A stretch of 64,000 bases of DNA from positions 32,001 through 96,000 of the IMG/VR virus record IMGVR_UViG_3300042197_002234. The stretch is one strand, 5' to 3'. This DNA comes from a virus. A program made the position numbers and the translations under genes. This document shows positions 1 through 30,068 of this stretch, in pieces. Below the pieces are notes generated by a model that saw only the letters and a program-made list of their open reading frames with translations, had not been told where the DNA came from and did not search any database. Numbering within the stretch: the first letter of the stretch is position 1; each line of letters starts with the position of its first letter.

Positions 1-408
1 CAAAATAATAGATTTTTAAATGGTTGCTCTTTTGAGTGGGATAGCGAAAACAACAAGTTAAGATTTTCTAAAGATTTTTATAATAGAGTTAATTTAGATA
101 TACCAATTTTACATGAAGAAATTGATATTTTTTCTGATGAGTTTACAATTGATTTTAAAAGAAGTGAAAATAAATTTTATGTACAAAACATAGTAAAACC
201 ACAAACTTTAACATTTAAAATATATGATTGTATTACTGGTGGATTAATATATGAAACAACCATGGAATTAATTCCTCAATATAATTATTTCATTTATCCA
301 TCACAAAATAACTTTGATAGTGATGAGAATTTTAAAAAATTTAGAGTTGAGGTCTTGAAAGAAAATCAAATAATACATAATGAATTTATACATTTAAAAT
401 ATGAATAA
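1..408 (+). CDS. Partial hypothetical protein (C-terminal end; begins before the window), part of glycosylation island 1
   Basis: Frame +1 is open from base 1 to TAA at 406-408 (QNNRFLNGCSFEW...HNEFIHLKYE*) and overlaps the ATG of the next gene (ATGAATAA). Not in the ORF track. Confidence 0.8.
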   Translation, partial: QNNRFLNGCSFEWDSENNKLRFSKDFYNRVNLDIPILHEEIDIFSDEFTIDFKRSENKFYVQNIVKPQTLTFKIYDCITGGLIYETTMELIPQYNYFIYPSQNNFDSDENFKKFRVEVLKENQIIHNEFIHLKYE

Positions 409-1345: not shown

Positions 1346-1346
1346 T

Positions 1347-5011: not shown

Positions 5012-5012
5012 T

Positions 5013-5558
5013 ATGGCACACAACCAACAACAAAATTTTTACGGTAGGGTTAAAAATAAATTTCCAAAATATTTTAGAGATGTTAAAGTACTTGATATAG
5101 GTTCTTTAGACATAAATGGTAATACAAAACATTTTTTTTCACATCCACTATATTATGTCGGTGTGGACCTTTCAGAAGGTAATAACGTAAATGTGGTTTG
5201 TCCTGGTCACCTTTATGATTCAGGATTCCAATTTGATGTTGTAATGTCTTCTGAGTGTTTTGAACATGATATGTATTACCCAAGGACAATATCAAATATG
5301 ATTAAACTATTAAAACCAAATGGATTAATGATATTTACTTGCGCATCTACAGGAAGACCTGAACATGGTACATTAAGGTCAAATCCTACCGACGCACCAT
5401 TTTTACAAAATATTGATGAAAAATGGGCGAATTATTATAAAAATTTAACAGAGGATGACATTAGAGCAATTATAAATGTTGAAGACATTTTCAGTGATTA
5501 CGGTTTTGAATATGAACCATCTTCATGTGATTTATATTTTTGGGGAATTAAAAAATAA
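5013..5558 (+). CDS. Class I SAM-dependent methyltransferase
   Basis: VLDIGSLDING, YVGVDL, FDVVMSSECFEH and LLKPNGLMIF motifs. Confidence 0.9.
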   Translation: MAHNQQQNFYGRVKNKFPKYFRDVKVLDIGSLDINGNTKHFFSHPLYYVGVDLSEGNNVNVVCPGHLYDSGFQFDVVMSSECFEHDMYYPRTISNMIKLLKPNGLMIFTCASTGRPEHGTLRSNPTDAPFLQNIDEKWANYYKNLTEDDIRAIINVEDIFSDYGFEYEPSSCDLYFWGIKK

Positions 5559-5564
5559 TAATTA

Positions 5565-6251
5565 ATGAATGTTGATGTAATTTGTTTAACTAACACATAC
5601 GATTACAGTATGTTTGAAGTAACAAAAAGAGTTATTAAGTCATTACATTTGTCTGAAAAAAATATTAAGTTTAATATTATTCTATTAGAAAGCAATAAAA
5701 ACAATCCATATGTATATACGGATGTTGATTTTTATATAAAACCTGAAGAAGATTTTAATTATAACAAATATTTAAATATCGCAAATAAATACCTAACATC
5801 AGATTGGGTTTTGATTACAAATAATGATGTAATCTATCAAAGAAATTGGTTTTCAAAAATATTAGAGATATATAATAAACGACCTGATATAGAATCTTTC
5901 TCACCTAAAGAAGTACTTTTTTATTCAACAATATACGGAGACCATTTTGATTCTGACGATGAATATTGGGAAAATTATAAAGTAACCGAAGGTCTTTTAG
6001 GATGGTCTTTATTAATGAAAAAAAAAGTTTGGGATGAGGTTTATCCGTGGGACGAACAATTCGATTTTTTTTATCAAGATAATGATTATGCAAAAATAAT
6101 AGAATCAAAAGGTATTAAACACGCAATAGTTAGAGATTCATTGACTTTACATATAGGTAATTTAAATTTCTTTAAAGATGTTGTTGACCACGAAAGAAAT
6201 ACAAAAATGAAAGAAGGGTATAATAAATTTTTAAATAAATGGGGTAATTAA
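5565..6251 (+). CDS. GT2-family glycosyltransferase
   Basis: FNYNKYLNIA, WVLITNNDV (DxD region), W-D-E-x-F-x-F-F-Y-Q-D-N-D-Y acceptor motif, LHIG. Confidence 0.85.
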   Translation: MNVDVICLTNTYDYSMFEVTKRVIKSLHLSEKNIKFNIILLESNKNNPYVYTDVDFYIKPEEDFNYNKYLNIANKYLTSDWVLITNNDVIYQRNWFSKILEIYNKRPDIESFSPKEVLFYSTIYGDHFDSDDEYWENYKVTEGLLGWSLLMKKKVWDEVYPWDEQFDFFYQDNDYAKIIESKGIKHAIVRDSLTLHIGNLNFFKDVVDHERNTKMKEGYNKFLNKWGN

Positions 6252-8357
6252 ATGAGAATAATACACGTAACACCAGGAATGATACCAATCCCACCTAATG
6301 GATGGGGTGCGGTAGAAAAAATAATTTGGGAATACCATAAAAATTTACAGAAGTTAGGTTATGAATCTGAAATTAGATACCTAAATGAGGTTAACTATAA
6401 AGATGGTGACATCGTACACATCCACATAGCCAATTTAGCTTTGGAGACATATGAAAGAGGAATACCATATATTTTCTCATTACATGACCACCATGTGGTA
6501 TATAATGGAAAAGATTCTTTTAATTATAAACAAAACTTAGAAGCAATTAAAAAATCAGTAGTTTCATTCTGTCACGCAGAATATTTGGTTGATTATTTTG
6601 ATGAAACCGATAAGTTGTTTTATTTGTCGCATGGTGTAAACACAGATTTCTTTAAAGTAGAAAATCCATACAGAAGTGAACATCGTTTATTGTGTTTAGC
6701 TAATAACGGAATCGGTGGTGATTCATCTTATGATAGGAAAGGTTTCAGATATGCAATTGAAGCTGCAAAAAAATTAAATTTACCAATCACTGTCGCGGGC
6801 CCCGATAACAACAAAAACTTCTTTCAACACCATTTAGATTTAATGGATTATGATAAACTAACATTGTTGTTTGATAATCCAAATGAAGACAGTATTTTAG
6901 AGTTGTATAAAAATCACTCAATATTTTTACACCCATCTTCATTAGAAGCTGGTCATCCAAATTTAACATTATTAGAGGCGATATCTTGTAATCTACCAAT
7001 AGTTGGAACTTACGAAGGTAATAGAAAAATACACGGTATGATTGTGACTGAAAGAGATTCAAATCGTGTTGCAAACTCAATTCAAGAAATAATATCAAAT
7101 TATGAATATTATGTTAATGAAACTTTTAAAAATAAAGAAAATTTTGATTGGTCTACAATAACAAATAGATTATCAAAAATGTACAATTTAGTTAGTATTA
7201 TTAAAAAAGAGTATAATTCTGAAGAAACAAAAAGTTTATTAATTAATAATATTGAAAATACATCAAGGTTTGATTATAAAAAAGATAATAACTTAACATT
7301 TAATGTTCATTTTGTAAACAACCCGTTTTTTGAAATTTTAGGTGATTCAGATAAAGAATATAATGTTCTTTTTTATGATAATGATGAACTAATTTATTCA
7401 ACAAAACTTAGAGCCAATATGTGGTCAAAACTTAATAGGTCATATTATACAAATTGGATAATTGAGGTTTACGATGAAGACAAATTAATTTATAGATACA
7501 CAACTAACTTTACAGGTAAAAGAGTTTTTATTTCATTTGACTCAAAGTCATTAGGGGATAATGTATCTTGGATACCGTATGTGTTAGAATTTAAGAAAAA
7601 ACACAATTGTAATGTTGTTGTTTCAACATTTTGGAATAAACTATTTAAGGATGTGTATCCCGAACTCGAGTTTGTTGAGCCAGGTAGTGTTGTGGATGAT
7701 TTAGTCGCAATGTATAGAATAGGATGGTTTTATGATAATAATCAAGAACCAGTTTTACCAAGTACTATTCCACTACAAAAAGCAATTACAAATATTTTGG
7801 GATTAGAGTTTGAGGAAATAAGACCAAGAATTCACTTTGAACCAAAAGAAAGATTGTTTGAGGAAAAGTATATCACAATCGCAAATGAATCTACTGCAGG
7901 TTTAAAGTTATGGAACAATCCTAATGGTTGGCCAGAATTAGTATCATATTTAAAATCAAAAGGTTATAGAGTGGTTAATGTATCTAAAAATGGTGAAAGA
8001 TTAAAAGGTGTTACACAACTAAAAGACACGTCAATTGAAAATACCATGAATGCTATTTATCATAGTGAGTTCTTTATTGGTTTATCTAGTGGGTTGTCTT
8101 GGTTAACATGGGGGTTAGGTAAACATGTAGTTATGATTTCAAACTTCACTGAGTATGACCATGAATTTACTTCAAACTGCACAAGAATTACAAACCCATC
8201 TGTCTGTCATGGATGTTGGAATAACCCTATGTTTAAGTTTGATAAGGGTGATTGGAATTGGTGTCCTGAGCATAAAGGAACTGAAAGACATTTTGAATGT
8301 CATAAATCAATAACTGCGGAAATGGTTATAGAAAAAATAAAACATTTATTACAATGA
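6252..8357 (+). CDS. Fusion of an N-terminal GT4 domain with an Aah/TibC-type (autotransporter strand-loop-strand) protein O-heptosyltransferase-like domain
   Basis: N-terminal IPPNGWGAVEK and HPSSLEAGHPNLTLLEAI (GT4). C-terminal SLGDNVSWIPY, FFIGLSSGLSWLTW and the Cys set CHGCWN...WCPEHKGTERHFEC match my recollection of the TibC/Aah catalytic and iron-finger motifs. Confidence 0.85.
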   Translation: MRIIHVTPGMIPIPPNGWGAVEKIIWEYHKNLQKLGYESEIRYLNEVNYKDGDIVHIHIANLALETYERGIPYIFSLHDHHVVYNGKDSFNYKQNLEAIKKSVVSFCHAEYLVDYFDETDKLFYLSHGVNTDFFKVENPYRSEHRLLCLANNGIGGDSSYDRKGFRYAIEAAKKLNLPITVAGPDNNKNFFQHHLDLMDYDKLTLLFDNPNEDSILELYKNHSIFLHPSSLEAGHPNLTLLEAISCNLPIVGTYEGNRKIHGMIVTERDSNRVANSIQEIISNYEYYVNETFKNKENFDWSTITNRLSKMYNLVSIIKKEYNSEETKSLLINNIENTSRFDYKKDNNLTFNVHFVNNPFFEILGDSDKEYNVLFYDNDELIYSTKLRANMWSKLNRSYYTNWIIEVYDEDKLIYRYTTNFTGKRVFISFDSKSLGDNVSWIPYVLEFKKKHNCNVVVSTFWNKLFKDVYPELEFVEPGSVVDDLVAMYRIGWFYDNNQEPVLPSTIPLQKAITNILGLEFEEIRPRIHFEPKERLFEEKYITIANESTAGLKLWNNPNGWPELVSYLKSKGYRVVNVSKNGERLKGVTQLKDTSIENTMNAIYHSEFFIGLSSGLSWLTWGLGKHVVMISNFTEYDHEFTSNCTRITNPSVCHGCWNNPMFKFDKGDWNWCPEHKGTERHFECHKSITAEMVIEKIKHLLQ

Positions 8358-8734
8358 AAATAGAAGTATCAATTGGTGAGATTGTTGACAAATTAACAAT
8401 TTTGGAAATTAAAAAAGATAAAATAAAGGATGAAAATAAATTGGTTGATATCTTAAAAGAGTATAACTATTTAAAAGATGTTGTAACAAATGAAATTGGA
8501 TTTTCATTAGAATCCGAAGAATATAAAGATTTATTGGAAACAAATAAAAAACTTTGGGATATTGAAGACCATATTAGAAATAAAGAAAAAAGAAAATCTT
8601 TTGATATTGAATTTATTGAGTTGGCTAGAAATGTGTATATTACAAATGATGTTAGAGCATCACAAAAAAAAGATATAAATCTGAAACTTAATTCAGAATT
8701 TATAGAACACAAATCATATTCTGACTATAAATAA
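8354..8734 (+). CDS. Small helical protein resembling the DUF6165 family
   Basis: EVSIGEIVDKLTILEIK...LWDIEDHIR...FIELARNVYITNDVR...K..IN pattern, recognised from memory. Confidence 0.65.
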   Translation: MKIEVSIGEIVDKLTILEIKKDKIKDENKLVDILKEYNYLKDVVTNEIGFSLESEEYKDLLETNKKLWDIEDHIRNKEKRKSFDIEFIELARNVYITNDVRASQKKDINLKLNSEFIEHKSYSDYK

Positions 8735-8765
8735 AAAAAGGGGGGTTTTAAAACTCCCTTTTTTT
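8733..8765. terminator. Bidirectional intrinsic terminator between convergent genes
   Basis: A7-GGGGGG-TTTTAAAA-CTCCC-T7 hairpin with U-tracts on both strands. Confidence 0.8.
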
Positions 8766-11700
8766 ATAATGGGTCATTACATTCGTTATAAACTAATGTG
8801 TATGTAAAATATCTAGGACCCGCATTAGTACCATCTGAGTTAAAACCAACTATAATGTTTGTGTTACATTCAAGTATTTCGTCCTGTAATGTAAGGGTAA
8901 AACAAGCCACGCCAGCGGCGTTAAATGAGGTAACATCACTTGCTATTTCAGTTATAGTAAATGTAGATGATGTTAAATCATCACATTCGTATTTAAAAAG
9001 ATATGCGGTTACACTATTAGCCAAACCATCAACAGGACTTGTTACAGTACCACACAATTTTATAGTTCCAGAACTTAACATGTCGATAGGTACTGGTACA
9101 CCTATAAATCCTTGTGTTCTGGTATCGAAGGGTGATATTCCATCCCAAGCGATATCCCAAGGACATCCATTCCAACCACAAGTATTATTGGCGATGTAAA
9201 CGTCAGTATCATTAGGTCCTTGTGTCCAACTACCTGAATTTGATGCTAATAAAAATTGTCTTTTAATGTTAATTGTTGCATCACCTGTAGTGCCTTCAAC
9301 AATACCACAAGACCCCGCAACTGTTAAACCTGTGACACTAGTTACCGTAGTAGCACCATCGGTGACAGTTAAAGAACCACCACCACTTGATGTACCCGAA
9401 CTACCCGAGGTTCCTGATGAACCTGTTTGACCTGCAGTACCTGAACTACCTGAACTACCACTTGAACCTGAGGTACCGCTAGCCCCACTAACACCACTTG
9501 TGCCCGCAGTTCCATTAGCTCCGCTAGTACCTGAAGTTCCTTTAGTTCCTGAGGTTCCACTAGACCCTGAAGTACCCGAACTACCTGAAGAACCACTTGA
9601 ACCTGATGTTCCACTTGTTCCTGAAGTACCGTTAACTCCTGAAGTACCACTTGTACCATTAACTCCTGAAGTACCACTTGTACCAATCGAACCATCACAA
9701 CCATTACAACATACTTTGAAACATAATACATCACCATAAGAGAATGGACTTGCGGAACTTGAAGATGCGAATATCGGACCTTCAATAAAGAAGGAAGTAG
9801 AATTCAATCTTCCAACACCAGACCAATCTGAATAGTGTACAAATTTTGTTGGGTCTGCTTGATTATATATTGTTAAATTTCCACCACAAATACATTTGTT
9901 GAAAACTTCATATTGATTTACACCATTGTTATCAAAATCATAGAAGTGTAAATATGTTGCTGCCGATACAGTTAACGTAGTTGCTGAAGAACCTGTGATA
10001 AACGCAAATTCACCATTAGAATCAGGAGTACTATCGTTTGTTAACGTATATGGTAAACAATAAGCTGATACCCCACTAGTTCCTGATGTTCCACTTGTTC
10101 CTGAACTACCTGACGTTCCTCTAGTTCCTGATGTTCCTGAAGAGCCGCTGCTGCCACTTGAGCCCGAAGAACCCGACGTTCCACTTGTTCCTGATGAACC
10201 ACTTGAACCTGAACTACCTGATGTTCCACTTGAACCTGAAGAACCTGAACTTCCTGATGAACCACTGCTACCACTAGTACCAGATGTACCCGAACTACCT
10301 GATGAACCACTTGAACCTGAAGAACCGCTACTTCCACTTGTGCCTGATGTACCTGAGCTACCTGATGTTCCGCTAGTTCCTGAACTACCTGATGAGCCGC
10401 TTGAACCTGACGAACCACTAGTGCCTGATGTTCCTGAAGAACCACTACTTCCACTAGAACCTGAACTTCCTGAAGAACCACTTGTGCCCGAAGTACCACT
10501 ACTTCCGCTAGACCCTGAACTTCCGCTCGAACCTGAAGTACCCGAAGAACCGCTACTACCGCTTGTTCCTGATGTTCCACTTGAGCCTGACGTTCCGCTA
10601 GTCCCTGAAGAACCACTTATACCTGAAGTTCCTGAACTACCTGATGTTCCTGAAGAGCCAGATGACCCCGAAGAACCTGAGCTACCTGATGAACCGCTAG
10701 ACCCACTTGTACCCGCAGTCCCTGAACTTCCTGATGTTCCACTTGTTCCTGATGAGCCACTTGTACCGCTCGAACCTGAGGAACCACTATTTCCACTTGA
10801 ACCCGACGTTCCACTTGTTCCTGAAGAACCACTACTACCGCTTGAGCCCGAGCTACCTGAAGTACCACTAGTTCCTGAACTTCCTGAAGAGCCGCTACTA
10901 CCACTTGACCCTGAAGAACCGCTACTACCGCTTGTTCCTGAAGTTCCACTATTTCCTGAAGAACCACTTGAACCACTACTACCGCTAGAACCCGATGTTC
11001 CACTAGTTCCTGAACTTCCTGAAGAGCCGCTACTACCACTTGACCCTGATGTTCCGCTAGTCCCTGAAGAACCTGAAGTACCACTTGTACCACTAGTTCC
11101 CGAACTACCTGATGAACCACTACTACCGCTAGAACCTGATGAACCGCTAGTTCCACTTGAACCTGAAGAGCCAGAACTTCCTGAAGAACCACTACTACCG
11201 CTCGAACCTGAACTACCTGATGTCCCACTTGTACCTGAAGAACCGCTTGTACCTGACGTGCCGCTTGAGCCTGATGACCCACTACTTCCTGAACTACCGC
11301 TAGAACCTGAAGTTCCTGAACTGCCAGAAGAACCACTACTACCGCTAGAACCTGAAGTTCCTGAAGAACCTGATGTTCCGCTAGTACCTGATGACCCTGA
11401 ACTTCCACTACTACCTGAAGAACCGCTTGTACCGCTAGTACCCGAACTACCTGAAGTTCCACTTGTTCCTGATGACCCTGAACTTCCACTACTACCGCTA
11501 GAACCTGATGTTCCACTAGTTCCCGAAGAGCCGCTTGTACCGCTTGTTCCTGAACTACCCGAAGAACCACTACTACCGCTTGAGCCCGAGCTACCTGAAG
11601 TTCCGCTTGTTCCTGACGAGCCGCTACTACCCGAACTTCCACTACTACCCGATGTTCCACTCGTTCCTGATGAGCCACTTGTGCCACTAGAACCTGAGCT

Positions 11701-14700
11701 ACCTGAAGAACCGCTAATTCCACTTGTTCCCGAAGAACCTGAACTTCCTGAAGAACCACTACTTCCTGATGTACCGCTAGTACCGCTAGTACCTGAACTA
11801 CCGCTAGAACCTGAACTTCCTGAAGAACCGCTGCTACCACTAGAGCCTGATGTGCCGCTAGTTCCCGAACTTCCACTTGTACCGCTAGTTCCTGAAGAAC
11901 CTGAACTACCACTAGAACCCGAAGCACCGCTTGTACCTGATGAGCCGCTTGAACCTGAAGAGCCTGATGAACCACTACTACCGCTAGTTCCTGATGTACC
12001 ACTTGACCCACTACTACCGCTTGAACCTGAACTTCCTGATGAGCCTGATGTACCGCTTGTTCCTGAAGAACCACTTGAGCCTGAACTTCCCGATGAACCA
12101 CTACTACCGCTAGTTCCTGATGAGCCACTACTACCACTTGTACCAGATGTACCTGAACTTCCTGAAGTACCACTAGTTCCTGATGTTCCCGAACTACCAC
12201 TCGTACCCGAACTTCCTGAAGAACCGCTAGTACCTGCAGTACCTGAAGAACCCGATGTTCCACTTGAACCTGAGCTACCTGATGAACCGCTACTACCGCT
12301 AGTTCCTGATGAACCACTAGTACCGCTAGTACCTGAACTACCGCTTGAACCTGAAGAACCACTACTTCCACTTGTGCCGCTAGTACCTACAGTTCCTGAT
12401 GAACCACTAGTACCGCTAGTACCTGAACTACCGCTTGAACCTGAAGAACCACTACTTCCACTAGTACCCGAAGTACCTGAACTTCCTGATGTACCGCTTG
12501 AGCCTGAACTACCCGATGTTCCACTAGTTCCTGAAGAACCACTAGACCCTGAACTACCTGAAGTTCCGCTAGTTCCTGAAGAACCTGATGTTCCGCTAGT
12601 TCCTGAAGAACCACTAGACCCTGAACTACCTGAAGTTCCGCTAGTTCCACTTGAGCCTGATGACCCTGAACTTCCACTACTACCTGAAGAACCACTTGTA
12701 CCGCTAGTACCCGAACTACCTGAAGTTCCACTTGTTCCTGAAGAGCCTGATGAACCACTACTACCGCTTGAGCCCGAGCTACCTGAAGAGCCGCTTGTTC
12801 CTGCAGTTCCTGAACTACCTGAAGAACCACTACTACCTGATGTTCCACTAGTTCCTGATGAACCACTTGTACCGCTAGTTCCACTTGAACCACTACTACC
12901 TGAAGTACCTGAAGAGCCACTAGACCCTGAACTTCCGCTACTACCGCTTGAACCCGATGTTCCACTTGTACCGCTAGTTCCTGATGTTCCTGAAGAACCT
13001 GATGTTCCGCTTGTTCCTGAACTACCTGATGAACCACTACTACCACTAGTCCCTGAAGTACCACTAGTTCCTGAAGTACCACTAGTTCCCGAACTTCCTG
13101 AAGACCCTGATGTTCCGCTAGTACCTACAGTACCTGATGTTCCTGAAGAACCACTTGTACCGCTTGTACCTGACGAACCACTAGACCCACTAGAACCTGA
13201 ACTACCACTTGTTCCTGAACTTCCTGAAGTCCCACTAGTACCTGATGAACCTGATGTTCCACTAGTTCCACTTGAACCTGAACTTCCTGAAGAGCCACTT
13301 GTACCGCTAGTTCCTGATGTTCCACTAGACCCTGAACTTCCTGATGAACCCGAAGTTCCACTAGTTCCTACAGTACCACTACTTCCGCTAGACCCTGAAC
13401 TTCCGCTCGAACCTGAAGTACCCGAAGAACCGCTACTACCGCTTGTTCCTGATGTACCTGACGAGCCTGATGTTCCACTAGACCCTGAACTTCCTGAAGT
13501 CCCACTAGTACCAGAACTTCCTGATGTTCCGCTAGTTCCTGAACTACCGCTTGTTCCTGATGTACCTGACGAGCCTGATGTTCCACTAGACCCTGAACTT
13601 CCTGATGTTCCGCTAGTACCACTTGTACCCACAGTTCCTGAGCTTCCTGACGTACCGCTTGAGCCTGAGCTTCCTGAAGTCCCACTAGTACCAGAACTTC
13701 CTGATGTTCCGCTAGTTCCTGATGAACCGCTTGAACCTGAGCTACCTGAAGAACCTGATGTTCCACTTGTACCCGAACTTCCTGAAGACCCTGAACTTCC
13801 ACTACTACCGCTAGAACCTGATGTTCCACTAGTTCCCGAAGAGCCGCTTGTACCGCTTGTTCCTGAAGTTCCACTTGAACCTGAAGTACCGCTAGAACCA
13901 GAAGAGCCGCTACTACCACTAGAACCTGATGTTCCACTTGTACCCGCAGTACCTGAGCTTCCTGATGAACCGCTACTACCTGATGAGCCACTTGTACCGC
14001 TTGTTCCTGAACTACCCGAAGAACCACTACTACCGCTAGAACCTGATGTTCCACTTGTACCCGAAGTACCTGAGCTTCCTGACGTTCCACTAGTTCCCGA
14101 AGAACCACTAGACCCTGAAGAGCCTGAACTACCTGAAGTTCCACTAGTTCCTGATGAGCCACTTGTGCCCGAAGTTCCACTTGAACCTGAACTTCCTGAT
14201 GAACCGCTACTACCTGATGTCCCACTTGTACCTGAAGAACCACTAGTTCCTGATGAACCACTACTACCACTTGTACCAGATGTACCTGAACTACCACTTG
14301 TACCTGATGTTCCTGAAGAACCGCTTGACCCTGAAGAACCTGAGCTACCTGAAGTTCCGCTTGTTCCCGAAGAGCCTGATGTACCACTTGTGCCTGAAGT
14401 TCCACTTGAACCTGAACTTCCTGATGAACCTGACGTACCGCTAGTTCCTGAAGAACCACTACTTCCGCTTGAACCTGAGGTTCCACTTGTACCTACAGTC
14501 CCTGATGTACCTGAACTACCTGATGTTCCGCTACTTCCACTAGAACCTGAACTTCCGCTTGTTCCTGATGTTCCTGAACTACCACTTGTACCGCTAGTTC
14601 CTGATGAACCACTTGAACCCGAACTTCCTGATGAACCACTACTACCGCTAGTACCATTAGTTCCACTTGTTCCCGAAGAACCTGATGTTCCACTTGACCC

Positions 14701-17700
14701 ACTACTACCACTTGTACCTGATGTTCCTGAAGAACCGCTTGACCCTGAAGAACCTGAGCTACCTGAAGTTCCGCTTGTACCGCTTGTTCCCGAACTTCCT
14801 GATGTACCGCTAGTTCCTGAAGAACCACTTGTTCCTGAAGTTCCACTTGAACCTGAACTTCCTGATGAGCCACTACTACCGCTTGAACCTGAGGAACCGC
14901 TACTACCGCTAGTTCCTGATGAACCACTACTTCCACTAGAACCTGATGTTCCGCTAGTACCTGAACTACCGCTCGAGCCTGATGTACCGCTAGTACCCGA
15001 ACTACCTGATGAACCACTACTACCACTTGAACCTGAGCTACCTGATGTTCCGCTAGTTCCAGAAGAACCACTAGACCCTGAACTTCCACTACTTCCTGAT
15101 GAACCTGATGTTCCACTAGTACCTACAGTCCCACTTGAGCCAGATGTACCCGAACTACCTGACGAACCACTAGAACCTGAACTACCACTTGTTCCGCTAG
15201 TTCCTGATGTTCCACTTGTTCCTGAAGTCCCACTAGTACCTGATGAACCTGATGTTCCACTTGTTCCCGAAGAGCCTGATGTACCACTTGAGCCTGAACT
15301 ACCAGAAGACCCCGATGTACCACTACTTCCACTTGTGCCGCTAGTTCCTGATGAACCATCTGTTCCACTAGTACCTGAGCTACCTGAAGTGCCGCTAGTT
15401 CCTGATGAACCACTTGACCCTGATGTTCCGCTAGTTCCTGAAGTTCCGCTAATACCCGAAGTACCACTTGTACCGCTAGTACCTGATGTTCCTGAAGAAC
15501 CATCAGTTCCACTTGTTCCTGAAGTACCACTACTACCATCTGTTCCTGATGTTCCACTTGACCCTGATGTACCCGAAGTTCCTGAGCTACCATCAGTACC
15601 TGAAGTTCCGCTTGAACCCGATGTTCCTGATGAACCACTAGTTCCTGATGAACCACTAGTTCCTGATGAACCACTAGTTCCGCTAGTTCCTGATGAGCCA
15701 TCAGTACCACTACTACCGTCTGTACCACTAGAACCTGATGTTCCGTTAGTTCCACTTGTACCATTACTACCGTCAGTACCTGAACTCCCACTAGAACCTG
15801 ATGTTCCGCTAGTTCCACTTGTACCATTACTACCGTCAGTACCTGAAGTTCCGCTTGTTCCCGAACTACCACTAGTACCTGATGTTCCACTAGTTCCTGA
15901 CGAACCACTGCTACCACTAGTACCTGATGTGCCATTACTACCATCAGTTCCTGATGAACCTGAAGTTCCACTAGTTCCGCTACTACCATCTGTTCCGCTT
16001 GTTCCTGAAGTACCGCTTGAACCTGATGTTCCACTTGTTCCTGAAGTACCGCTTGAACCTGAAGTTCCACTTGTTCCTGAAGAACCTGAGGTACCACTAC
16101 TTCCGTCAGTACCGCTACTACCATCTGTTCCGCTTGTTCCCGATGAACCACTTATACCTGAAGTACCGCTACTACCATCTGTTCCACTAGTTCCTGAAGT
16201 ACCACTACTACCATCAGTTCCGCTAGTTCCACTTGTTCCTGATGAACCATCTGTTCCGCTAGTTCCGCTTGAACCTGAAGTTCCGCTAGTTCCCGAAGAA
16301 CCTGATGTACCACTAGTACCACTACTACCATCTGTTCCTGATGTACCACTAGTTCCTGAAGTACCATTACTTCCATCAGTTCCGCTTGAACCTGATGTAC
16401 CACTTGTTCCTTTAGAACCATTTACACCGCTAATACCTGAAGAACCTGATGTACCATTAGTTCCTGAAGTTCCACTTGTTCCTGATGAACCATCTGTTCC
16501 GCTAGTTCCACTTGAACCATCTGTTCCGCTAGTTCCACTTGTTCCTGATGAACCGCTTGTTCCTGAGGTTCCACTTGTTCCAGAACTTCCATCAGTACCA
16601 CTTGTTCCTGAAGTTCCTGATGAACCATCTGTTCCGCTAGTACCTGATGTTCCTGAAGAGCCATCCGTTCCGCTATTACCCGAAGTTCCCGATGAACCAT
16701 CTGTTCCTGAATTTCCGCTAGTTCCCGATGAACCATCTGTTCCTGAAGTTCCGCTAGTTCCGCTTGAACCATCTGTTCCTGAAGTTCCGCTAGTTCCGCT
16801 TGAACCATCCGTACCTGAAGTTCCACTAGTTCCCGATGAACCATCTGTACCTGAAGTTCCACTAGTTCCCGATGAACCATCCGTTCCGCTAGTACCCGAA
16901 GTTCCCGATGAACCATCCGTTCCGCTAGTACCACTAGTTCCTGATGAACCATCTGTTCCGCTAGTACCACTAGTTCCTGATGAACCATCTGTTCCTGACG
17001 TACCACTAGTTCCTGATGAACCATCTGTTCCACTGGTTCCTGAAGAACCGCTTGTCCCACTACTACCATCCGTACCTGAACTACCACTTGTTCCTGAAGT
17101 GCCGCTACTACCATCAGTACCTGAAGTTCCACTAGTACCACTTGAGCCATCAGTACCTGATGAACCATCCGTACCACTAGTACCACTAGTTCCTGAAGTT
17201 CCGCTTGAACCTGATGTTCCACTAGTTCCTGAAGTACCATTACTTCCGTCAGTTCCGCTTGAACCTGATGTTCCACTAGTTCCTGAACTTCCATCAGTAC
17301 CACTTGTTCCTGAAGAACCATCAGTTCCGCTAGTACCTGAAGTTCCACTTGTTCCTGAAGAACCGTCTGTCCCACTAAAACCACTTGTCCCTGAAGTTCC
17401 ATTTGAACCATCTGTACCTGAAGTACCACTTGTTCCTGAAGAACCACTAGTACCCGAAGAACCGTCAGTTCCGCTTGAACCTGATGTGCCGCTACTACCA
17501 TCAGTCCCTGAACTACCATCAGTCCCTGAACTACCATCAGTCCCTGAACTACCATCAGTCCCTGAACTACCTGACGTACCACTAGTTCCTGATGTACCAT
17601 TAGAACCATCCACACCACTTATTCCTGAAGAACCTGAAGAACCACTTGTTCCTGAAGAACCGTTTGTCCCACTAGAACCACTTGTCCCTGAACTTCCATC

Positions 17701-18795
17701 TGTACCACTAGAACCACTTGTCCCTGAACTTCCATCTGTACCACTAGTACCACTTGTTCCTGAAGAACCGTCTGTTCCACTCGAGCCACTTGTTCCTGAA
17801 GAACCGTCTGTTCCACTAGAGCCACTTGTGCCTGAACTTCCATCTGTTCCTGACGAACCATCAGTACCTGAACTTCCACTTGTCCCTGAACTTCCATCCG
17901 TACCTGATGAACCATCAGTACCTGAACTTCCTGAAGAACCACTAGTTCCTGAACTACCATCAGTACCTGAACTTCCATCAGTTCCGCTTGTACCTGAAGA
18001 ACCACTTGTACCTGAAGAACCACTTGTACCTGAACTTCCGCTTGTTCCTGATGAACCTGAAGTTCCTGATGAACCACTTGAGCCTGAACTTCCTGATGTA
18101 CCTGAACTTCCTGATGTACCGCTAGTTCCTGATGACCCACTTGAACCTGAAGTTCCGCTTGTTCCTGAACTACCATCTTGACCGCTAGTCCCTGATGTAC
18201 CATCTTGACCGCTAGTACCTGAACTACCATTTGTACCTGAAGACCCACTACTTCCGCTAGACCCTGAACTACCGCTACTACCTGAACTACCGCTACTACC
18301 TGAACTTCCTGAAGTTCCACTAGTACCTGAACTACCATCTTGACCGCTAGTCCCTGATGTGCCATCTTGACCGCTAGTACCTGAACTACCTGGAGAGCCA
18401 GTACCGCTTGTTCCCGAAGACCCACTACTACCTGGAGAGCCAGTACCGCTTGTTCCCGAAGACCCACTACTACCTGAAGTTCCTGACGAACCACTATTTC
18501 CACTTAAACCTGAACTACCTGAAGTACCGCTACTACCCGAAGACCCACTTGTACCTGAACTACCATCAGTACCTGATGTGCCATCAACACCACTTGTTCC
18601 TGAGCTACCGTCAATACCACTTGTTCCTGAAGTTCCACCTAAAGCCAAAGCATCTGCAACTTGTTTTATGGTTGCTTTATATGATGAGCCTGCAGGATTT
18701 TGGGAAGTGTCCCCTGTTATTACTATGTGGATTACGTCGTTTTCCGAAACTCCTGTTGCTAGTACCCTGTCTGTAAGTCTTTGATAATTCGGCAT
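8764..18795 (-). CDS. Giant (3343 aa) Gly-X-Y Ser/Thr-rich repeat protein, probable virion fibre or appendage
   Basis: ATG at 18795, TAA at 8764-8766. About 50 aa of unique N-terminus, about 2850 aa of GSS/GTS/GTD triplets, a Cys-containing domain, a second short triplet run and about 200 aa of globular C-terminus. TATTTATA motif 12 nt upstream. Confidence 0.9.
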   Translation of the reverse strand: MPNYQRLTDRVLATGVSENDVIHIVITGDTSQNPAGSSYKATIKQVADALALGGTSGTSGIDGSSGTSGVDGTSGTDGSSGTSGSSGSSGTSGSSGLSGNSGSSGTSGSSGSSGTSGTGSPGSSGSSGTSGTGSPGSSGTSGQDGTSGTSGQDGSSGTSGTSGSSGSSGSSGSSGSSGSSGSSGSSGTNGSSGTSGQDGTSGTSGQDGSSGTSGTSGSSGSSGTSGTSGSSGTSGSSGSSGSSGTSGSSGTSGSSGTSGSSGTSGSSGTSGTDGSSGTDGSSGTSGSSGSSGTDGSSGTDGSSGTSGSSGTDGSSGTDGSSGTSGSSGTDGSSGTSGSSGTDGSSGTSGTSGTDGSSGTSGSSGTDGSSGTSGSSGTNGSSGTSGSSGSSGISGVDGSNGTSGTSGTSGSSGTDGSSGTDGSSGTDGSSGTDGSSGTSGSSGTDGSSGTSGSSGTSGTSGTDGSNGTSGTSGFSGTDGSSGTSGTSGTSGTDGSSGTSGTDGSSGTSGTSGSSGTDGSNGTSGTSGTSGSSGTSGTSGTSGTDGSSGTDGSSGTSGTSGTDGSSGTSGTSGSSGTDGSSGTSGSSGTSGTDGSSGTSGTSGTDGSSGTSGTSGTDGSSGTSGTSGTDGSSGTSGTSGTDGSSGTSGTSGTDGSSGTSGTSGTDGSSGTSGTSGTDGSSGTSGTSGTDGSSGTSGNSGTDGSSGTSGNSGTDGSSGTSGTSGTDGSSGTSGTSGTDGSSGTSGTSGTSGSSGTSGTSGTDGSSGTSGTDGSSGTSGTSGTNGTSGSSGISGVNGSKGTSGTSGSSGTDGSNGTSGTSGTSGTDGSSGTSGTSGSSGTSGTSGSSGTSGTDGSSGTSGTSGTDGSSGTSGTSGTDGSSGTSGISGSSGTSGTDGSSGTDGSSGTSGSSGTSGTSGSSGTSGTSGTSGSSGTSGTSGTDGSSGTSGTSGSSGTDGSNGTSGTSGSSGSSGTSGTSGTSGSSGTSGTSGTDGSNGTSGTSGTSGSSGSSGTDGSNGTSGTNGTSGSSGTDGSSGTDGSSGTSGTSGSSGTSGSSGTSGSSGTSGSSGTSGTDGSSGTSGTSGSSGTSGTDGSSGTSGTSGTDGSSGTSGTSGTSGTSGISGTSGTSGTSGSSGSSGTSGTSGSSGTSGTDGSSGTSGTSGSSGTSGSSGSSGSSGTSGSSGTSGTSGSSGTSGTSGTSGTSGTSGTSGSSGSSGSSGSSGTSGSSGTVGTSGTSGSSGSSGSSGSSGSSGTSGTSGSSGSSGSSGSSGSSGTSGTSGSSGSSGTSGTSGSSGSSGSSGTSGSSGSSGSSGSSGSSGSSGSSGTSGTSGSSGTSGTSGSSGTSGTSGTSGSSGSSGSSGSSGTSGTSGSSGSSGTSGSSGTSGTNGTSGSSGSSGSSGSSGSSGTSGTSGSSGTSGTSGSSGSSGSSGTSGSSGTSGTVGTSGTSGSSGSSGSSGTSGTSGSSGSSGSSGTSGTSGTSGSSGTSGTSGSSGSSGSSGSSGTSGTSGSSGTSGTSGSSGSSGTSGSSGTSGTSGSSGSSGSSGSSGTSGTSGSSGTSGTSGSSGSSGSSGSSGTSGTSGSSGTSGTSGTSGSSGSSGSSGSSGTSGTSGSSGSSGSSGSSGTAGTSGTSGSSGSSGSSGSSGTSGSSGTSGTSGTSGSSGTSGTSGSSGSSGSSGSSGSSGTSGTSGSSGSSGSSGSSGTSGTSGSSGTSGTSGSSGSSGTSGSSGTVGTSGTSGTSGSSGSSGTSGSSGTSGTSGSSGTSGTSGSSGTSGTSGSSGSSGTSGSSGTSGTSGSSGSSGTSGSSGSSGSSGSSGTVGTSGTSGSSGSSGSSGTSGTSGTSGSSGSSGSSGTSGTSGSSGTSGTSGSSGTSGSSGSSGSSGSSGTSGTSGSSGTSGTVGTSGTSGSSGSSGTSGTSGTSGTSGTSGSSGSSGSSGTSGTSGSSGTSGTSGTSGTSGSSGSSGSSGSSGSSGTSGSSGSSGTSGTSGSSGTSGTSGSSGSSGSSGTAGTSGSSGSSGSSGSSGSSGSSGTSGTSGSSGTSGTSGSSGSSGSSGSSGSSGTSGTSGSSGSSGSSGTSGTSGSSGTSGTSGSSGSSGSSGTSGTSGSSGSSGTSGSSGTSGTSGSSGSSGSSGSSGTSGTSGSSGTVGTSGTSGSSGSSGSSGSSGTSGTSGSSGTSGSSGSSGSSGSSGTSGSSGTAGTSGSSGSSGTSGSSGTSGTSGTSGSSGTSGTSGSSGSSGTSGSSGSSGSSGSSGSSGTSGTSGSSGSSGSSGSSGSSGTSGTSGSSGSSGSSGSSGSSGTSGASGSSGSSGSSGTSGTSGSSGTSGTSGSSGSSGSSGSSGSSGSSGTSGTSGTSGSSGSSGSSGSSGTSGISGSSGSSGSSGTSGSSGTSGTSGSSGSSGSSGSSGTSGTSGSSGSSGSSGSSGSSGTSGTSGSSGTSGTSGSSGSSGSSGSSGTSGTSGSSGTSGTSGSSGSSGSSGSSGTSGTSGSSGTSGSSGSSGSSGSSGTSGSSGSSGSSGSSGSSGTSGTSGSSGTSGTSGSSGSSGSSGSSGSSGSSGSSGTSGSSGSSGSSGSSGSSGTSGTSGTSGSSGTSGTSGSSGSSGSSGSSGTSGTSGSSGSSGSSGSSGNSGTSGTSGSSGSSGSSGSSGSSGSSGTSGTSGSSGSSGSSGSSGTSGTSGSSGNSGSSGSSGTSGSSGTSGTSGSSGTAGTSGSSGSSGSSGSSGSSGSSGTSGSSGTSGISGSSGTSGTSGSSGTSGTSGSSGSSGTSGSSGSSGSSGSSGTSGTSGSSGSSGSSGSSGSSGTSGTSGSSGSSGSSGSSGTSGTSGSSGTSGTSGSSGSSGSSGSSGSSGTSGTSGSSGSSGSSGSSGSSGTSGSSGSSGSSGTSGTSGSSGSSGSSGSSGTSGTRGTSGSSGTSGTSGTSGVSAYCLPYTLTNDSTPDSNGEFAFITGSSATTLTVSAATYLHFYDFDNNGVNQYEVFNKCICGGNLTIYNQADPTKFVHYSDWSGVGRLNSTSFFIEGPIFASSSSASPFSYGDVLCFKVCCNGCDGSIGTSGTSGVNGTSGTSGVNGTSGTSGTSGSSGSSGSSGTSGSSGTSGTKGTSGTSGANGTAGTSGVSGASGTSGSSGSSGSSGTAGQTGSSGTSGSSGTSSGGGSLTVTDGATTVTSVTGLTVAGSCGIVEGTTGDATINIKRQFLLASNSGSWTQGPNDTDVYIANNTCGWNGCPWDIAWDGISPFDTRTQGFIGVPVPIDMLSSGTIKLCGTVTSPVDGLANSVTAYLFKYECDDLTSSTFTITEIASDVTSFNAAGVACFTLTLQDEILECNTNIIVGFNSDGTNAGPRYFTYTLVYNECNDPL
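10070..18630 (-). repeat. Degenerate 9-nt-period coding repeat (Gly-Ser/Thr-Ser/Asp triplets) with exact sub-duplications
   Basis: Gly at every third residue. Exact 84-nt copy at 10492-10575 = 13372-13455; 72-nt copy at 12301-12372 = 12391-12462; 42-nt tandem near 18390-18474. Confidence 0.95.
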
Positions 18796-18839
18796 TTTAT
18801 TTTATTCTATAAATATAAAAGGTATTGTTTTTAATGGTA

Positions 18840-19142
18840 TTATTGACCTTCAAATATATAAATATTAGCATCCATGAAAATGAATATCTCACCGTCTTGA
18901 TAAATCTTAGCTTTTTCATCACAATATATAATTCCGAATTTTTCACAACCAATAGAATCAATTAATTTTAACCCCAATGCGGGGGCGGTGTTAAATTGAA
19001 TTGGTAGTGTAATAACTAATGATGGTGGTATTGAGGTGTTTATAGTGGCAATTAAAACACATTGATTTCCATACACATCACACGCGAATAGATTGAATGG
19101 TAATGATACCCCTGTTACTGATGTAATTTCTATTTGAGTCAT
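18840..19142 (-). CDS. Hypothetical 100-aa protein, probably virion-associated
   Basis: Co-oriented between two large repeat-containing genes, with TATTTAT 6 nt upstream. Confidence 0.7.
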   Translation of the reverse strand: MTQIEITSVTGVSLPFNLFACDVYGNQCVLIATINTSIPPSLVITLPIQFNTAPALGLKLIDSIGCEKFGIIYCDEKAKIYQDGEIFIFMDANIYIFEGQ

Positions 19143-19168
19143 ACATCAATAAATACTCAATAATTTAT

Positions 19169-21838
19169 TTAACAACTACCAACCGAAGGTGATGGTGTTG
19201 GAGTTTGTGTTGGAGTTTTACTTGGTTTTGGGGTTTTACTTGGGTCAGGACAACCGCATGGATTTGTACAAGTTACTGACGGTGTAGGGGTATTTGTTGA
19301 AGTAGGGGTTTGAGTCATTGTTGGTGTTGGTGTTGGACTTGGAACTTTACAAGGGTCAAAAGAAGGTGTTGGGGTTACAGTTGGAGTAACTGTAGGTGTA
19401 GGTGTTTTAGTAGTTGTTGGTGTTGGGGTTGGTGTAGGTGTTGGTCTATTAACATATAAAACAAAATTGCATGTTGGGTCACAACTACCTGGTACAGTAG
19501 TTAATGTATAAGAACCATAAACCTCTCTTGGTGGAACTAACAAATACGGTCTAAATAAAAATGGTATTGTATGTTCACCTAAATTAATTATTATATCTTC
19601 ATTATCAGGTTTAAAAATAATGTTCATTAATTCACCATCATAGTTATTACTATCAATAATAATTTCATTAGTCGAACCTGAACTACCTGATATTACATAC
19701 GTAAAATCATCTTCTAAACATTCTGTAGTACAATCGGGACAATCAGGGTTAAACATCCTGAATGTATTTTTTAATAAATTAAAATTGTGTTTAACCTCAG
19801 GTGCGGATAGAGGTGTTACATACATTCTAAATTGTGATATACCACCTTCAAACGTCCCTGCAAAATTTTGTTCTATTAATATATGGTTATCCATACCATT
19901 AAATGTTGTACCTGTTAAATCATTAACAGGAAAACATTCAGGGTCTTGAATGTATGGTCCGTTTGGTAAAGTTGTTGATGAAAAAACAAGATTTTCTCTT
20001 AACCCTTGTGTTCCGCCACCCCAAGAAATATTAAATGGTACCCCAACTTGTCGTTCTTTATCAGTGTTTAAAGCTCTTGGAATTATCTCTTCAAAATCTT
20101 CTATGGTATGAAATAATTTACCGTTAATGTAAATTTTTAATCTACCACTTCTCATTTTCTTTTCTAACAACCATTTGTCATTTAAATTGACAATTTGAAT
20201 TGTTTCAGGTGTTTTACCGTTAATATTAGTGTATGGTATTGTTATTAATGACGCTGCGTTATTGGCTAAACTTTCCAAATGTAGTGTTTCGGTAATGTCA
20301 CCCAATCCACCTCTATACCACAAATCACAAACATCTAACCATGTGTATCGTTCCCAAACCGCATCAAACTGAAACCATCTTTCAATATCTAACCATGATG
20401 GACAAACTTCTGCACAGAACGGGTATATTGGTGTAGTACAATAATCAAATATTGTATATCCTGTTGTGAATGTTGTTCCTGTATTTTCACAAGAACCCGT
20501 AGTTGTACAATCACCAGTAAATCTTAAAACTCTAATACCTATTGATGGATTCTTTGGGTCACCACATAATCTAAACGACATTGCGTTAGACATTGAATCG
20601 TATAACGGGTCTTTTTCACACGTATTTTCTATTGAGGTAAAACCTGTATAACAATCCACACAATCATCACAAGTATCACAATTTGTACATGTTGGAGTAC
20701 AAGTTGGTTCTGGTTTCCAACAATCAGGAGTAGGACTTGGTGTCGGTGTAGGCGTGGGGGTTGGTATTATTATATTTGCACACTCATGTTTTTGACATTC
20801 CCAACCACAAGTTTCACAAGGATAATCATTACAATCACATCCACAACTTATTGTTTTTTGTGGGTCACCTTTACAAAAATCACAACCGTAATTTACATGA
20901 GGGTCATGAATGTTATTTACTGACCTTGGTGGGTAAACATAGATACATCTACTATTTGTTATAGTTCTATTACAACAAGCACAAGTTTCAAGTTTTGTTA
21001 AACCTGAAGTAACTCTATTATAGTTTGGGAAACATTTTGGGTTACCATCAGCGTGATGCCAAAATTTATTTTCCGACCTCGTTCCAAAATAAAAGAAAGT
21101 ATTTTTATTGTTTGGATATATTTCATTTAAAGTTGTTTCATTAGGTCCTGGTGTATATTCATTAACCAATCTAGGTTTTAATAACATTTCAATAGCCCAA
21201 CCTTTGTTTGTCCTTTCAGGAAAAACCTCATAATCATACCCAAATAATTTATAAAATCCTTGATAAAATCCACCATATAATTCATGATACATTCCTTCAT
21301 ACGGACTAGTTTTTGACACAACTTCATATAATACAGTTTTGTTAAAACCCGAAAATCTAACATTGGGTGAAGTACTCGTATATCCAGTGACTTGGAAAAG
21401 TTTCAGTCTTCTGTCAAAATACAACCTATTAAATTTTAGAAAATCACTAAACAATCCTTCAGTAAAGGTTATAGTTTCACCTGTTAATTTGGTTACTAAT
21501 CCGTTATCAGTACCAACTAATCCTATATCACAAGATGTGTTTGCCGAAAAACAAGCTAAATCTTTATTTTCAGGATTATAATAATTTTGAGAAACAAAAA
21601 TATTGTTGTAATTATATTGTTTATAATTTAATGTTAATTTTTGTGATGTTAATGGATTGTTGGTATCAAAATATATAGGTAATCTATTCCCATATGTTTG
21701 AGCGATTAAATACGGTGAGAATATTACTTCTTCATTATAATCTCTTTCATCGGTAGACAATGACATATCATTGGACTCTAAACTAAAACTTAAAGACCAA
21801 TTCGGACGAGGATATTGATTAATATTTTGACTCGGCAT
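19169..21838 (-). CDS. Cys-rich, Pro/Thr-linker protein with a LamG/concanavalin-like domain, probable virion protein
   Basis: LKIYINGKL...[24 protein letters not shown] matches the LamG C-terminal pattern. Many CxxC/CxC motifs and two (PT)n tracts. Confidence 0.7.
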
Positions 21839-29401: not shown

Positions 29402-29412
29402 TACACAATAAA

Positions 29413-30066: not shown

Positions 30067-30068
30067 AA

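Follow-up and report, generated by a model that had tools for sequence, protein, structure and literature searches.

Collagen-like tail-fibre and side-fibre proteins are encoded by a number of phages and prophages, as exemplified by EPclA of E. coli O157:H7 prophages (PMC3368898) and by PHROGs 5073, 6320 and 1806. In these proteins a Gly-X-Y shaft connects a virion-attachment end to a distal domain, but the shaft is only tens of triplets long and is stabilised by Pro at X and about 22 % charged residues (PMC11923368). A comparable layout, in which a collagen-like stalk is followed by a C-terminal trimeric jelly-roll head, is found in C1q-family proteins and in BclA of the Bacillus exosporium, whose short stalk is GPT-rich, with Pro at X and Thr at Y, and O-glycosylated (PMC8968730). 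Collagen stability is currently explained by Pro/Hyp, by Lys-Asp/Glu clamps and, in a few cases, by glycosylated Thr. The latter situation is illustrated by the very long cuticle collagen of Riftia and by the synthetic peptide Ac-(Gly-Pro-Thr(Gal))10, which is triple-helical whereas unglycosylated (Gly-Pro-Thr)10 is a random coil (as cited in PMC11923368).

Hydroxy-amino acids in long repetitive proteins are also modified by the bacterial autotransporter heptosyltransferases of the TibC-TibA and Aah-AIDA-I systems (TIGR04414). TibC hyperglycosylates Ser in a long repetitive helical substrate in the cytoplasm, and the known substrates of this enzyme are beta-helical autotransporter repeats, not collagen repeats (PMC4358343). 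A further class of proteins with a three-residue Gly periodicity and small side chains is represented by the springtail (snow flea) antifreeze protein. Its polyglycine-II bundle requires well over one third Gly (Gly-Gly-X) and consists of short PPII helices joined by turns.

Here we describe a 3,343-residue open reading frame in a 64,000-nt stretch of viral DNA (positions 32,001 to 96,000 of IMG/VR record IMGVR_UViG_3300042197_002234), hereafter the window. The presence of a gp23 capsid gene, a T4-type portal and TerL assigns the window to an uncultured T4-like phage. An earlier note, made from the sequence alone, had pointed to a proline-free protein with about 950 Gly-X-Y triplets over 8.5 kb, and this observation is confirmed. 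The features of the locus are listed in the table.

Features of the fibre locus; positions are those of the window
Position	Strand	Feature	Residues and size
401..6251	+	Same operon as the heptosyltransferase-like gene: FkbM methyltransferase, GT4-containing protein, one unknown, SAM methyltransferase, GT2-like	GT4-containing protein 894 aa
6252..8357	+	GT4 + TibC/Aah-type protein O-heptosyltransferase fusion, probable modifier of the fibre	
8354..8734	+	DUF6165 protein, last gene of the glycosyltransferase operon	
8731..8767	.	Bidirectional terminator-like hairpin between the convergent fibre and glycosyltransferase operons	
8764..18795	-	Whole fibre gene	3,343 codons plus stop; 278.5 kDa, pI 4.05
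8767..9387	-	C-terminal head, predicted TNF/C1q-like jelly roll over residues about 41-205 of this piece	3137-3343
9388..9702	-	Distal collagen-like neck next to the head	3032-3136; 35 triplets
9703..10065	-	Globular insert with 6 Cys, fold unresolved	2911-3031; 121 aa
10066..18390	-	Main shaft, unbroken Gly-X-Y; triplets 1-50 contain GQD, 51-350 are GTD-rich, 351-925 are neutral GSS/GTS	136-2910; 925 triplets
10340..18181	+	Open reading frame read as the shadow of the repeat	2,613 aa
18397..18636	-	Two short Gly-X-Y runs separated by GSP-containing register breaks	54-119 (22 triplets, 18439-18636) and 122-133 (4 triplets)
18637..18795	-	N-terminal adaptor of about 50 aa, probably the virion-attachment module	1-53
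18808..18817	-	Promoter-like motif TATATTTATA, 12-13 nt before the ATG	
18840..21838	-	Two co-directional upstream genes with no family match; possible fibre partners	889 aa and 100 aa

The protein contains 986 Gly-X-Y triplets in all, 925 of them unbroken, where collagen repeats are defined by six or more contiguous triplets, and residues 1-432 match the Pfam Collagen profile (PF01391) with 180.5 bits, the gathering score being 27.2. In the 925-triplet run X is S 454, T 452, I 6, Q 4, N 4, V 3, F 1 and A 1, while Y is S 839, D 61, N 13, V 6, A 4, K 1 and R 1. There is no Pro in this run and the whole protein has only 17. Considering all X and Y positions together, Pro accounts for 0.1 %, Lys+Arg for 0.2 % and Asp+Glu for 3.3 %, so that neither of the stabilisers described for collagens, Pro/Hyp or Lys-Asp/Glu salt-bridge triplets (PMC11923368), is present. 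At 0.286 nm per residue the main run would extend over 794 nm and all Gly-X-Y runs over 846 nm if they formed a triple helix, close to the 0.8 µm calculated in the earlier note.

Such a pattern cannot arise by chance, and codon usage indicates that it is under selection. The 925 Gly codons are GGT (467), GGA (334), GGC (66) and GGG (58); neighbouring Gly codons differ at position 3 in 64 % of cases, whereas positions 1 and 2 never change. Similarly, 64 % of same-residue codon pairs between blocks use different codons. Thr is confined to X (452 against 0 at Y) and Asp to Y (61 against 0 at X). That the long frame might be an assembly artefact had been named beforehand as a way in which the reading could fail, and this worry is largely removed. 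The longest exact DNA repeat is 84 bp; thirteen 77-mers repeat, but none do at k=99 or 127, and no k-mer of 99 nt or more repeats. The open reading frame on the plus strand is considered the shadow of the repeat, since all conserved termini and family hits lie on the minus strand.

The N-terminal adaptor aligns from residue 1 with the N-termini of gp015 of Cellulophaga phage phi13:1, a structural protein proven by mass spectrometry, and of a virion protein of cyanophage S-TIM5. It also matches phrog_19691 “virion structural protein” (E=0.0037). A phmmer comparison (E about 1e-14) further showed that it heads shorter collagen-like fibres of 535-1715 aa, which carry other heads, in four of the other viral loci examined (L071, L074, L076 and L078).

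The C-terminal piece has no Pfam, PHROG or NCBIfam family, including C1q and TNF, and its similarity to C1q and TNF heads is in predicted fold only. An exhaustive search yielded 36 homologues among 1.84 billion representatives, whereas a word-index search for longer proteins with the head domain found none. The last 165 aa or so, with four invariant Cys, model as a ten-strand jelly roll of TNF/C1q type (pLDDT 86.6). The model gives Z 9.6 (rmsd 3.3 Å over 123 residues) to RANKL, Z 9.2 to the cyanophage A-1(L) short tail fibre domain and the A4 tail protein, and Foldseek E-values of 3e-5 to TNF-alpha and 8e-5 to the Caprin-2 C1q domain. Since only a monomer was modelled, trimerisation is inferred from the fold alone. 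Once the Gly-X-Y runs had been cut out of the giant open reading frames, a profile search detected head homologues; they follow collagen runs in three of the retrieved proteins (P0003, P0005 and P0014) and in two IMG/VR loci (L001 and L005). L001 was found with the single head sequence as query, and the orthologue in L005 has a 36-triplet neck in the same place.

As to similarity with the T4 fibre proteins (gp34-37, fibritin) outside the collagen repeat, PHROG tail-fibre hits lie only on the Gly-X-Y part, and tblastn of the C-terminal 433 aa against 50,697 GenBank phage records gave no match. The globular insert remains unexplained: it has no Pfam or PHROG family and no homologue in 83 loci, the ESM Atlas returned only unnamed viral clusters, an alignment with the L005 inserts and the N-termini of P0005 and P0014 was not convincing, and single-sequence AlphaFold2 gave an unusable model (pLDDT 41.5).

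The gene is preceded by a promoter-like motif whose ATATTTAT core lies within 45 nt upstream of 44 of 198 predicted genes, where about 2 are expected; many of these genes belong to the virion module. On the other side, the hairpin (-16.7 and -11.9 kcal/mol, z -3.5 and -3.3) separates it from the convergent glycosyltransferase operon. The neighbouring enzyme scores 286.6 bits against TIGR04414, above the equivalog cut-off of 200, and matches the TibC structures 4rb4 and 4rap with E 2e-50. In the alignment to 4rb4, the D110A crystal form, the query has the catalytic Asp (TibC D110) within SLGDNVSW, and the four iron-finger Cys (C-x2-C ... C ... C) are aligned (PMC4358343). In contrast to TibC, the enzyme is phage-encoded and fused to a GT4 domain, and its presumed substrate is a collagen-register repeat. 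Transfer of heptose to Ser is inferred from this family membership. ADP-heptose pathway genes were looked for in 195 kb of the record, which is only about 65 % complete: gmhA and rfaE domain II are absent and only a sub-threshold PfkB-like kinase is present, although a host could supply the sugar.

This gene pairing is conserved across dozens of viral contigs. Among non-duplicate IMG/VR loci with the enzyme, 34 of 46 carry a proline-free G-[TS]-[SN] run of at least 10 triplets within 10 kb downstream, against 3 of 48 upstream (Fisher p 5e-12; the loci come from related phages and are thus not fully independent). In 31 of the 34 the arrangement is convergent, as here, and several of these runs are giant (852-881 triplets). 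In L001 the neighbour scores 297.3 bits and is paired with a 3,192-aa fibre of 868 triplets, 677 of them unbroken, carrying the same head domain. The pairing is nevertheless not universal, since the huge phages LR756501 and LR756504 have TibC-like genes but only 10- to 19-triplet runs, or none, within 15 kb. Giants were found only in IMG/VR contigs; among proteins of 1,838-5,851 aa in an index of 5.8 billion proteins, the longest run with Gly-free X/Y was 120 triplets. We found no published description of this kind of fibre, no paper on a phage heptosyltransferase paired with collagen and none on the cultured relative Microcystis phage Mel-JY01.

Taken together, we favour, with a probability of about 0.55, the view that the gene encodes a late-expressed virion fibre. 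The adaptor would dock it on the particle, the shaft would form the stalk, and insert, neck and head would complete its distal end. The head would trimerise, set the register and nucleate C-to-N zippering of a collagen-type triple helix, as in C1q-family proteins and BclA, and would also bind the host surface. Since the shaft has no proline and no Lys/Arg for salt bridges, its stability is inferred to come from dense O-glycosylation of Ser and possibly Thr; the TibC/Aah-type enzyme and the other transferases and methyltransferases of the operon would add these sugars to unfolded chains in the cytoplasm before the helix closes. The product would be a thin, sugar-coated thread of about 0.8 µm that widens the capture radius for host cells in dilute water. 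What the analysis itself establishes is the gene, selection on the Gly register and on X/Y identity, the modular architecture, the predicted head fold and the conserved gene pairing, while trimer, triple helix, glycosylation, sugar identity, virion site and function are deduced without experimental data. Ser and Thr, moreover, are only middling triple-helix formers (PMC11923368). The interpretation offered in the earlier note is partly supported: a real collagen-register phage gene and a fibre architecture hold up, and its suggestion that stability might depend on glycosylation gains strong contextual support, whereas a single continuous 0.8-µm triple helix is plausible on present evidence and no more.

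The main alternative, which we regard as unlikely but not negligible, is an intrinsically disordered, heavily O-glycosylated mucin-like tether or brush held as a trimer only at the head, a possibility the earlier note had also raised. X and Y positions that are 94 % Ser/Thr, without Pro or charge pairs, next to a protein glycosyltransferase would fit this view, as would the random coil formed by unglycosylated (Gly-Pro-Thr)10. However, a disordered linker does not need Gly at exactly every third residue, let alone X and Y positions that are kept chemically distinct, and relatives with 677-861 unbroken triplets keep the same register. An inferred trimeric head next to a Gly-X-Y neck is, in addition, the classic collagen nucleation layout. 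It is also possible, though improbable, that the protein is not a virion component but a released or cell-associated glycoprotein, such as a decoy, an aggregation matrix or a surface mask, or that the transferases act on host envelope glycans, as proposed for similar islands in pelagimyophages (PMC7029224). The adaptor shared with proven virion proteins, the resemblance of the head to phage receptor-binding domains and the promoter-like motif of virion genes speak against the former, and the tight, oriented pairing with the TibC-like gene argues that the fibre itself is the substrate.

The polyglycine-II bundle with possible ice binding put forward in the earlier note is not supported and appears very unlikely. 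It shares with the shaft the three-residue periodicity and small side chains, but here Gly is exactly 33.3 %, never occurs at X or Y, and no break or turn motif interrupts 2,775 residues, while the flanking adaptor and knob fit a fibre. An assembly artefact or a wrong repeat number is about equally improbable. Repeats are hard to assemble, the contig of the closest relative (L004) ends inside its repeat, and a 73%-identical head (P0002) is known only as a 198-aa fragment. Yet, besides the lack of long exact repeats, one frame stays open for 10 kb between unique termini, a 9,366-nt orthologue is identical in six metagenome assemblies, and other contigs carry 677-861 unbroken triplets.

Compared with EPclA and related phage fibres, the shaft thus has 925 unbroken triplets, no Pro and 0.2 % Lys+Arg, with a protein glycosyltransferase beside the gene; compared with BclA, Thr is only at X, Y is Ser and Pro is absent. 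The Riftia collagen is an animal extracellular protein that has Thr at Y and still contains Pro, and the enzyme and sugar differ. Since the first two modes of collagen stabilisation are completely removed over 2,775 residues, the protein is a clean natural test of whether sugars and hydration alone can hold a triple helix. A more far-reaching and tentative reading, which we consider less likely than not, is that the shaft is a true collagen triple helix about 0.8 µm long, without proline, hydroxyproline or salt bridges, stabilised entirely by a dense coat of O-linked sugars, added processively to the nascent chains by a ring-type TibC-like enzyme. This would be a third, sugar-only way to build collagen, used widely by aquatic phages as an adjustable-length host-capture line. 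Pro-free recombinant collagen-like rods could also interest materials science.

The locus also points to phage self-glycosylation of a putative virion fibre by a relative of a bacterial adhesin-glycosylating enzyme. This would change how the large glycosyltransferase islands of aquatic T4-like phages are read, which are usually assigned to modification of the host surface. A fibre five to six times longer than a T4 long tail fibre (about 145 nm) would alter estimates of phage-host encounter rates. Finally, the same adaptor heads shafts from 28 to 925 triplets, so that length appears to be an evolvable trait.

The viral record, of which the window is bases 32001-96000, measures 195,527 bp with a GC content of 31.6 %. 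IMG/VR classes it as linear and CheckV estimates it to be about 65 % complete. It belongs to a T4-like phage, as indicated by a gp23-type capsid gene, a T4-type portal and a large terminase. The nearest capsid relatives are an uncultured 484-kb phage, Microcystis phage Mel-JY01 and the Flavobacterium 'immuto' phages, at 41-46 % identity. The capsid protein itself appears to contain a large extra N-terminal or inserted region, since the Gp23 profile covers only residues 354-602 of its 617 aa and tblastn matches come in two pieces covering about half of it. The fibre ORF is the only collagen-register gene in the record.

Coordinates of the features discussed (window positions unless another sequence is named)
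Feature	Position	Strand	Description
Fibre ORF	8764-18795	-	3,343 aa, 278.5 kDa, pI 4.05
Main Gly-X-Y run		-	residues 136-2910 of the fibre ORF, 925 triplets
Insert	9703-10065		121 aa with 6 Cys
Neck	9388-9702		35 triplets
C-terminal region	8767-9387		207 aa
ATATTTAT core	18809-18816		candidate phage promoter
Shadow frame	10340-18181	+	2,613-aa open frame opposite the repeat
GT4 + TibC/Aah-type fusion	6252-8357		701 aa
Homing-endonuclease-like ORF	24583-25344	+	NUMOD3 plus an MTES_1575/DUF559 nuclease domain; between unknown genes and a PolB-type exonuclease and dUTPase
Second sugar cluster	27887-31470	+	double GT2 protein, DegT-type aminotransferase fragment, WbqC and a methyltransferase
gp23-type capsid gene	53669-55522	-	617 aa
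T4-type portal	59787-61592		
Large terminase	61812-63581		
PfkB-like sugar kinase	G000:C1:23580-24314 (same genome, outside the window)		matches RfaE domain I below cut-off (55 bits)
Cys-rich repeats	L001 (viral contig) 10550-11851		at least five repeats of about 70 aa, no Pfam family
Mel-JY01 enzyme and collagen-like genes	L086 1-8430 and L095 (PP395634.1)		TibC-like fusion gene; proline-free ORF across the record ends

The main run of the fibre protein proceeds without a single register break, and shorter runs of 22, 4 and 35 triplets bring the total to 986. Within the main run the X position is occupied by Ser (454) and Thr (452), and the Y position by Ser (839), Asp (61) and Asn (13), while Pro is absent and only one Lys and one Arg are present. 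The insert and the neck precede the C-terminal region. At 0.286 nm per residue the main run would span 794 nm. The earlier note, which had described a proline-free collagen-register protein long enough for a sub-micron filament, was accurate in its description. A structural model of the Cys-containing insert only reached a pLDDT of 41.5 and left its fold unresolved. The long frame on the opposite strand is a shadow of the Gly-Ser/Thr codons and could mislead gene callers.

The repeat is degenerate at the DNA level. The longest exact repeat is 84 bp, thirteen 77-mers are repeated but none at k=99 or 127, and tandem-repeat units match at only 63-90 %. Gly codons use all four synonyms (467/334/66/58) and neighbouring ones differ at position 3 in 64 % of cases, yet none of the 1,850 first and second positions has changed. 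Between 18-codon blocks, 64 % of same-residue codon pairs use different codons, and Ser is encoded by both the TCN and the AGY families at X as well as at Y. Since Thr is never found at Y and Asp never at X, the two positions are held chemically distinct. These facts point to long-term purifying selection on the Gly register and on X/Y identity rather than to recent slippage. The exact triplet count should nevertheless be taken with some caution, and the contig of the closest relative (L004) breaks inside its repeat. Independent support comes from other relatives. An orthologous ORF of 9,366 nt (852 triplets, same head) is identical to the base in six viral contigs from six different metagenome samples (L005-L010), which suggests either one persistent phage population or one site sampled repeatedly. 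The viral contigs L001, L012, L069/L070 and L072 carry totals of 726-881 triplets, with unbroken runs of 458-861.

A TATATTTATA element lies 12-13 nt before the ATG of the fibre gene. Its ATATTTAT core occurs 90 times in the genome, and 44 of these occurrences lie within 45 nt upstream of the 198 predicted genes, where about 2 are expected. Many of the genes concerned are in the capsid and portal module. The element, which is distinct from the T4 motif TATAAATA, is a candidate phage promoter, probably late, but this remains an inference. A bidirectional terminator-like hairpin separates the fibre gene from the operon that converges on it.

Both ends of the protein are fibre-like. The first 45-50 residues align from residue 1 with the N-termini of gp015 of Cellulophaga phage phi13:1, which is annotated as structural from MS/MS and itself carries a short Gly-Thr-Asn run, and of a virion protein of cyanophage S-TIM5. 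Each match is weak on its own (E 0.03-0.2; PHROG E 0.0037). However, the same adaptor heads collagen-like proteins of 535, 665, 810 and 1,715 aa in other viral contigs at a phmmer E of about 1e-14, each with a different C-terminal domain. A conserved anchor, a variable-length shaft and a swappable tip are the signature of a host-recognition fibre.

The C-terminal domain has 36 relatives among 1.84 billion representative proteins, several of which follow collagen-like runs. With this alignment AlphaFold2 produces a model with a pLDDT of 86.6, predicted to be a jelly roll of the TNF/C1q type. The structural comparison gives Z 9.6 (rmsd 3.3 A over 123 residues) to RANKL and Z 9.2 to the carbohydrate-binding domain of the cyanophage A-1(L) short tail fibre and to a cyanophage A4 tail protein, while Foldseek yields E 3e-5 to TNF-alpha and 8e-5 to a C1q domain. 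A collagen stalk followed by a C1q/TNF-like trimeric head is the layout of C1q-family proteins and of Bacillus BclA. In such proteins the head nucleates folding, and folding starts from the C-terminus (PMC11923368). The domain does not, however, belong to these families by sequence, so that the phage protein can be said to work like them without being one of them. In L001 the TNF-like domain is followed by the Cys-rich repeats listed in the table.

The operon converging on the fibre gene encodes methyltransferases and glycosyltransferases. Its 701-aa member, a GT4 domain fused to a TibC/Aah-type autotransporter O-heptosyltransferase, scores 286.6 bits on TIGR04414 against a cut-off of 200 and aligns with the TibC crystal structures at E 2e-50, with the catalytic Asp and the four iron-finger Cys conserved (residues as defined in PMC4358343). 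TibC hyperglycosylates Ser residues of a long repetitive substrate in the cytoplasm. Neither gmhA nor RfaE domain II was found in the 195 kb examined, where a PfkB-like sugar kinase matches RfaE domain I only below cut-off. The second sugar cluster suggests that the phage makes or tailors an amino-sugar as well.

To see whether the pairing of enzyme and fibre is conserved, IMG/VR was scanned with the TibC-like domain. At least 371 viral contigs were found, of which 80 loci were retrieved and 63 are non-duplicate. Among loci with at least 5 kb of flank, 34 of 46 have a Gly-X-Y run of 10 or more triplets within 10 kb downstream, whereas only 3 of 48 have one upstream (Fisher p 5e-12). In 31 of the 34 the run is convergent with the enzyme gene, as in the window (binomial p 8e-7). 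The runs are nearly all of the same chemistry, with Thr or Ser at X, Ser, Asn or Asp at Y, and 0-0.5 % Pro in most. Since the loci come from related phages, the p-values overstate independence; even so, enzyme identity to the query ranges from 46 to 77 % and the fibres differ greatly. L001, which was reached independently through the head domain, repeats the pairing with a 3,192-aa fibre and a neighbour scoring 297 bits on TIGR04414. The cultured Microcystis phage Mel-JY01 also has the enzyme, as a fusion gene annotated only as 'methyltransferase FkbM', together with an unannotated proline-free G-T/S-S collagen-like ORF (about 1,788 codons, 202 triplets) that runs across the ends of its linear record. 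Two CDS annotated on the opposite strand (1-651 and 739-2298) look like shadow ORFs. In contrast, the published huge phages LR756501.1 and LR756504.1 (636-735 kb) encode TibC-like enzymes at 39-45 % identity, but only 10- to 19-triplet runs, or none, lie within 15 kb.

Collagen-like shafts in phage fibres are known, both in PHROG tail-fibre families and in EPclA (PMC3368898). Very long prokaryotic collagen-like polypeptides have been counted in databases, at up to 2,000 triplets with many interruptions (PMC11923368). What differs here is the combination of hundreds of unbroken triplets, a complete lack of Pro and of charge pairs, and a dedicated, conserved protein glycosyltransferase. Among proteins of 1,838-5,851 aa retrieved from an index of 5.8 billion proteins, the longest comparable run was 120 triplets, and a literature search found no paper describing this class.

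Several other explanations have to be weighed. A disordered glycosylated tether fits the composition but explains neither the strict Gly register nor the X/Y asymmetry, and is considered unlikely, although it is the strongest of the alternatives. Less likely still, but not excluded in the absence of proteomic data, is a non-virion role of the protein, or an action of the transferases on host glycans (cf. PMC7029224). A polyglycine-II bundle with ice binding, which the earlier note had raised, would need more Gly and periodic turns, neither of which is present, and an assembly artefact is countered by the k-mer analysis and by the orthologues; both are very improbable. The interpretation offered in that note is partly supported.

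The analysis itself establishes a modular fibre gene under selection with a collagen-register shaft, a head predicted to adopt a jelly-roll fold, and a conserved, oriented partnership with a BAHT-type enzyme that is catalytically intact as judged from its sequence. The way in which these parts would work together is inferred, and the whole chain of events is given a probability of roughly 0.55. That the gene is a real structural fibre gene is highly likely, glycosylation by the neighbour is somewhat more likely than not, and a continuous triple helix is only slightly more likely than not. In this view, the chains would be O-glycosylated on Ser (Y position, followed by Gly), and perhaps on Thr, while still unfolded, whereupon the head would trimerise and the helix zip towards the N-terminus. 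The sugars would supply the hydration and steric stabilisation that Pro/Hyp or Lys-Asp/Glu clamps supply elsewhere (these mechanisms and the precedent of glycosylated Thr are set out in PMC11923368). The adaptor would fix the thread to the particle, and the head would bind a host surface glycan.
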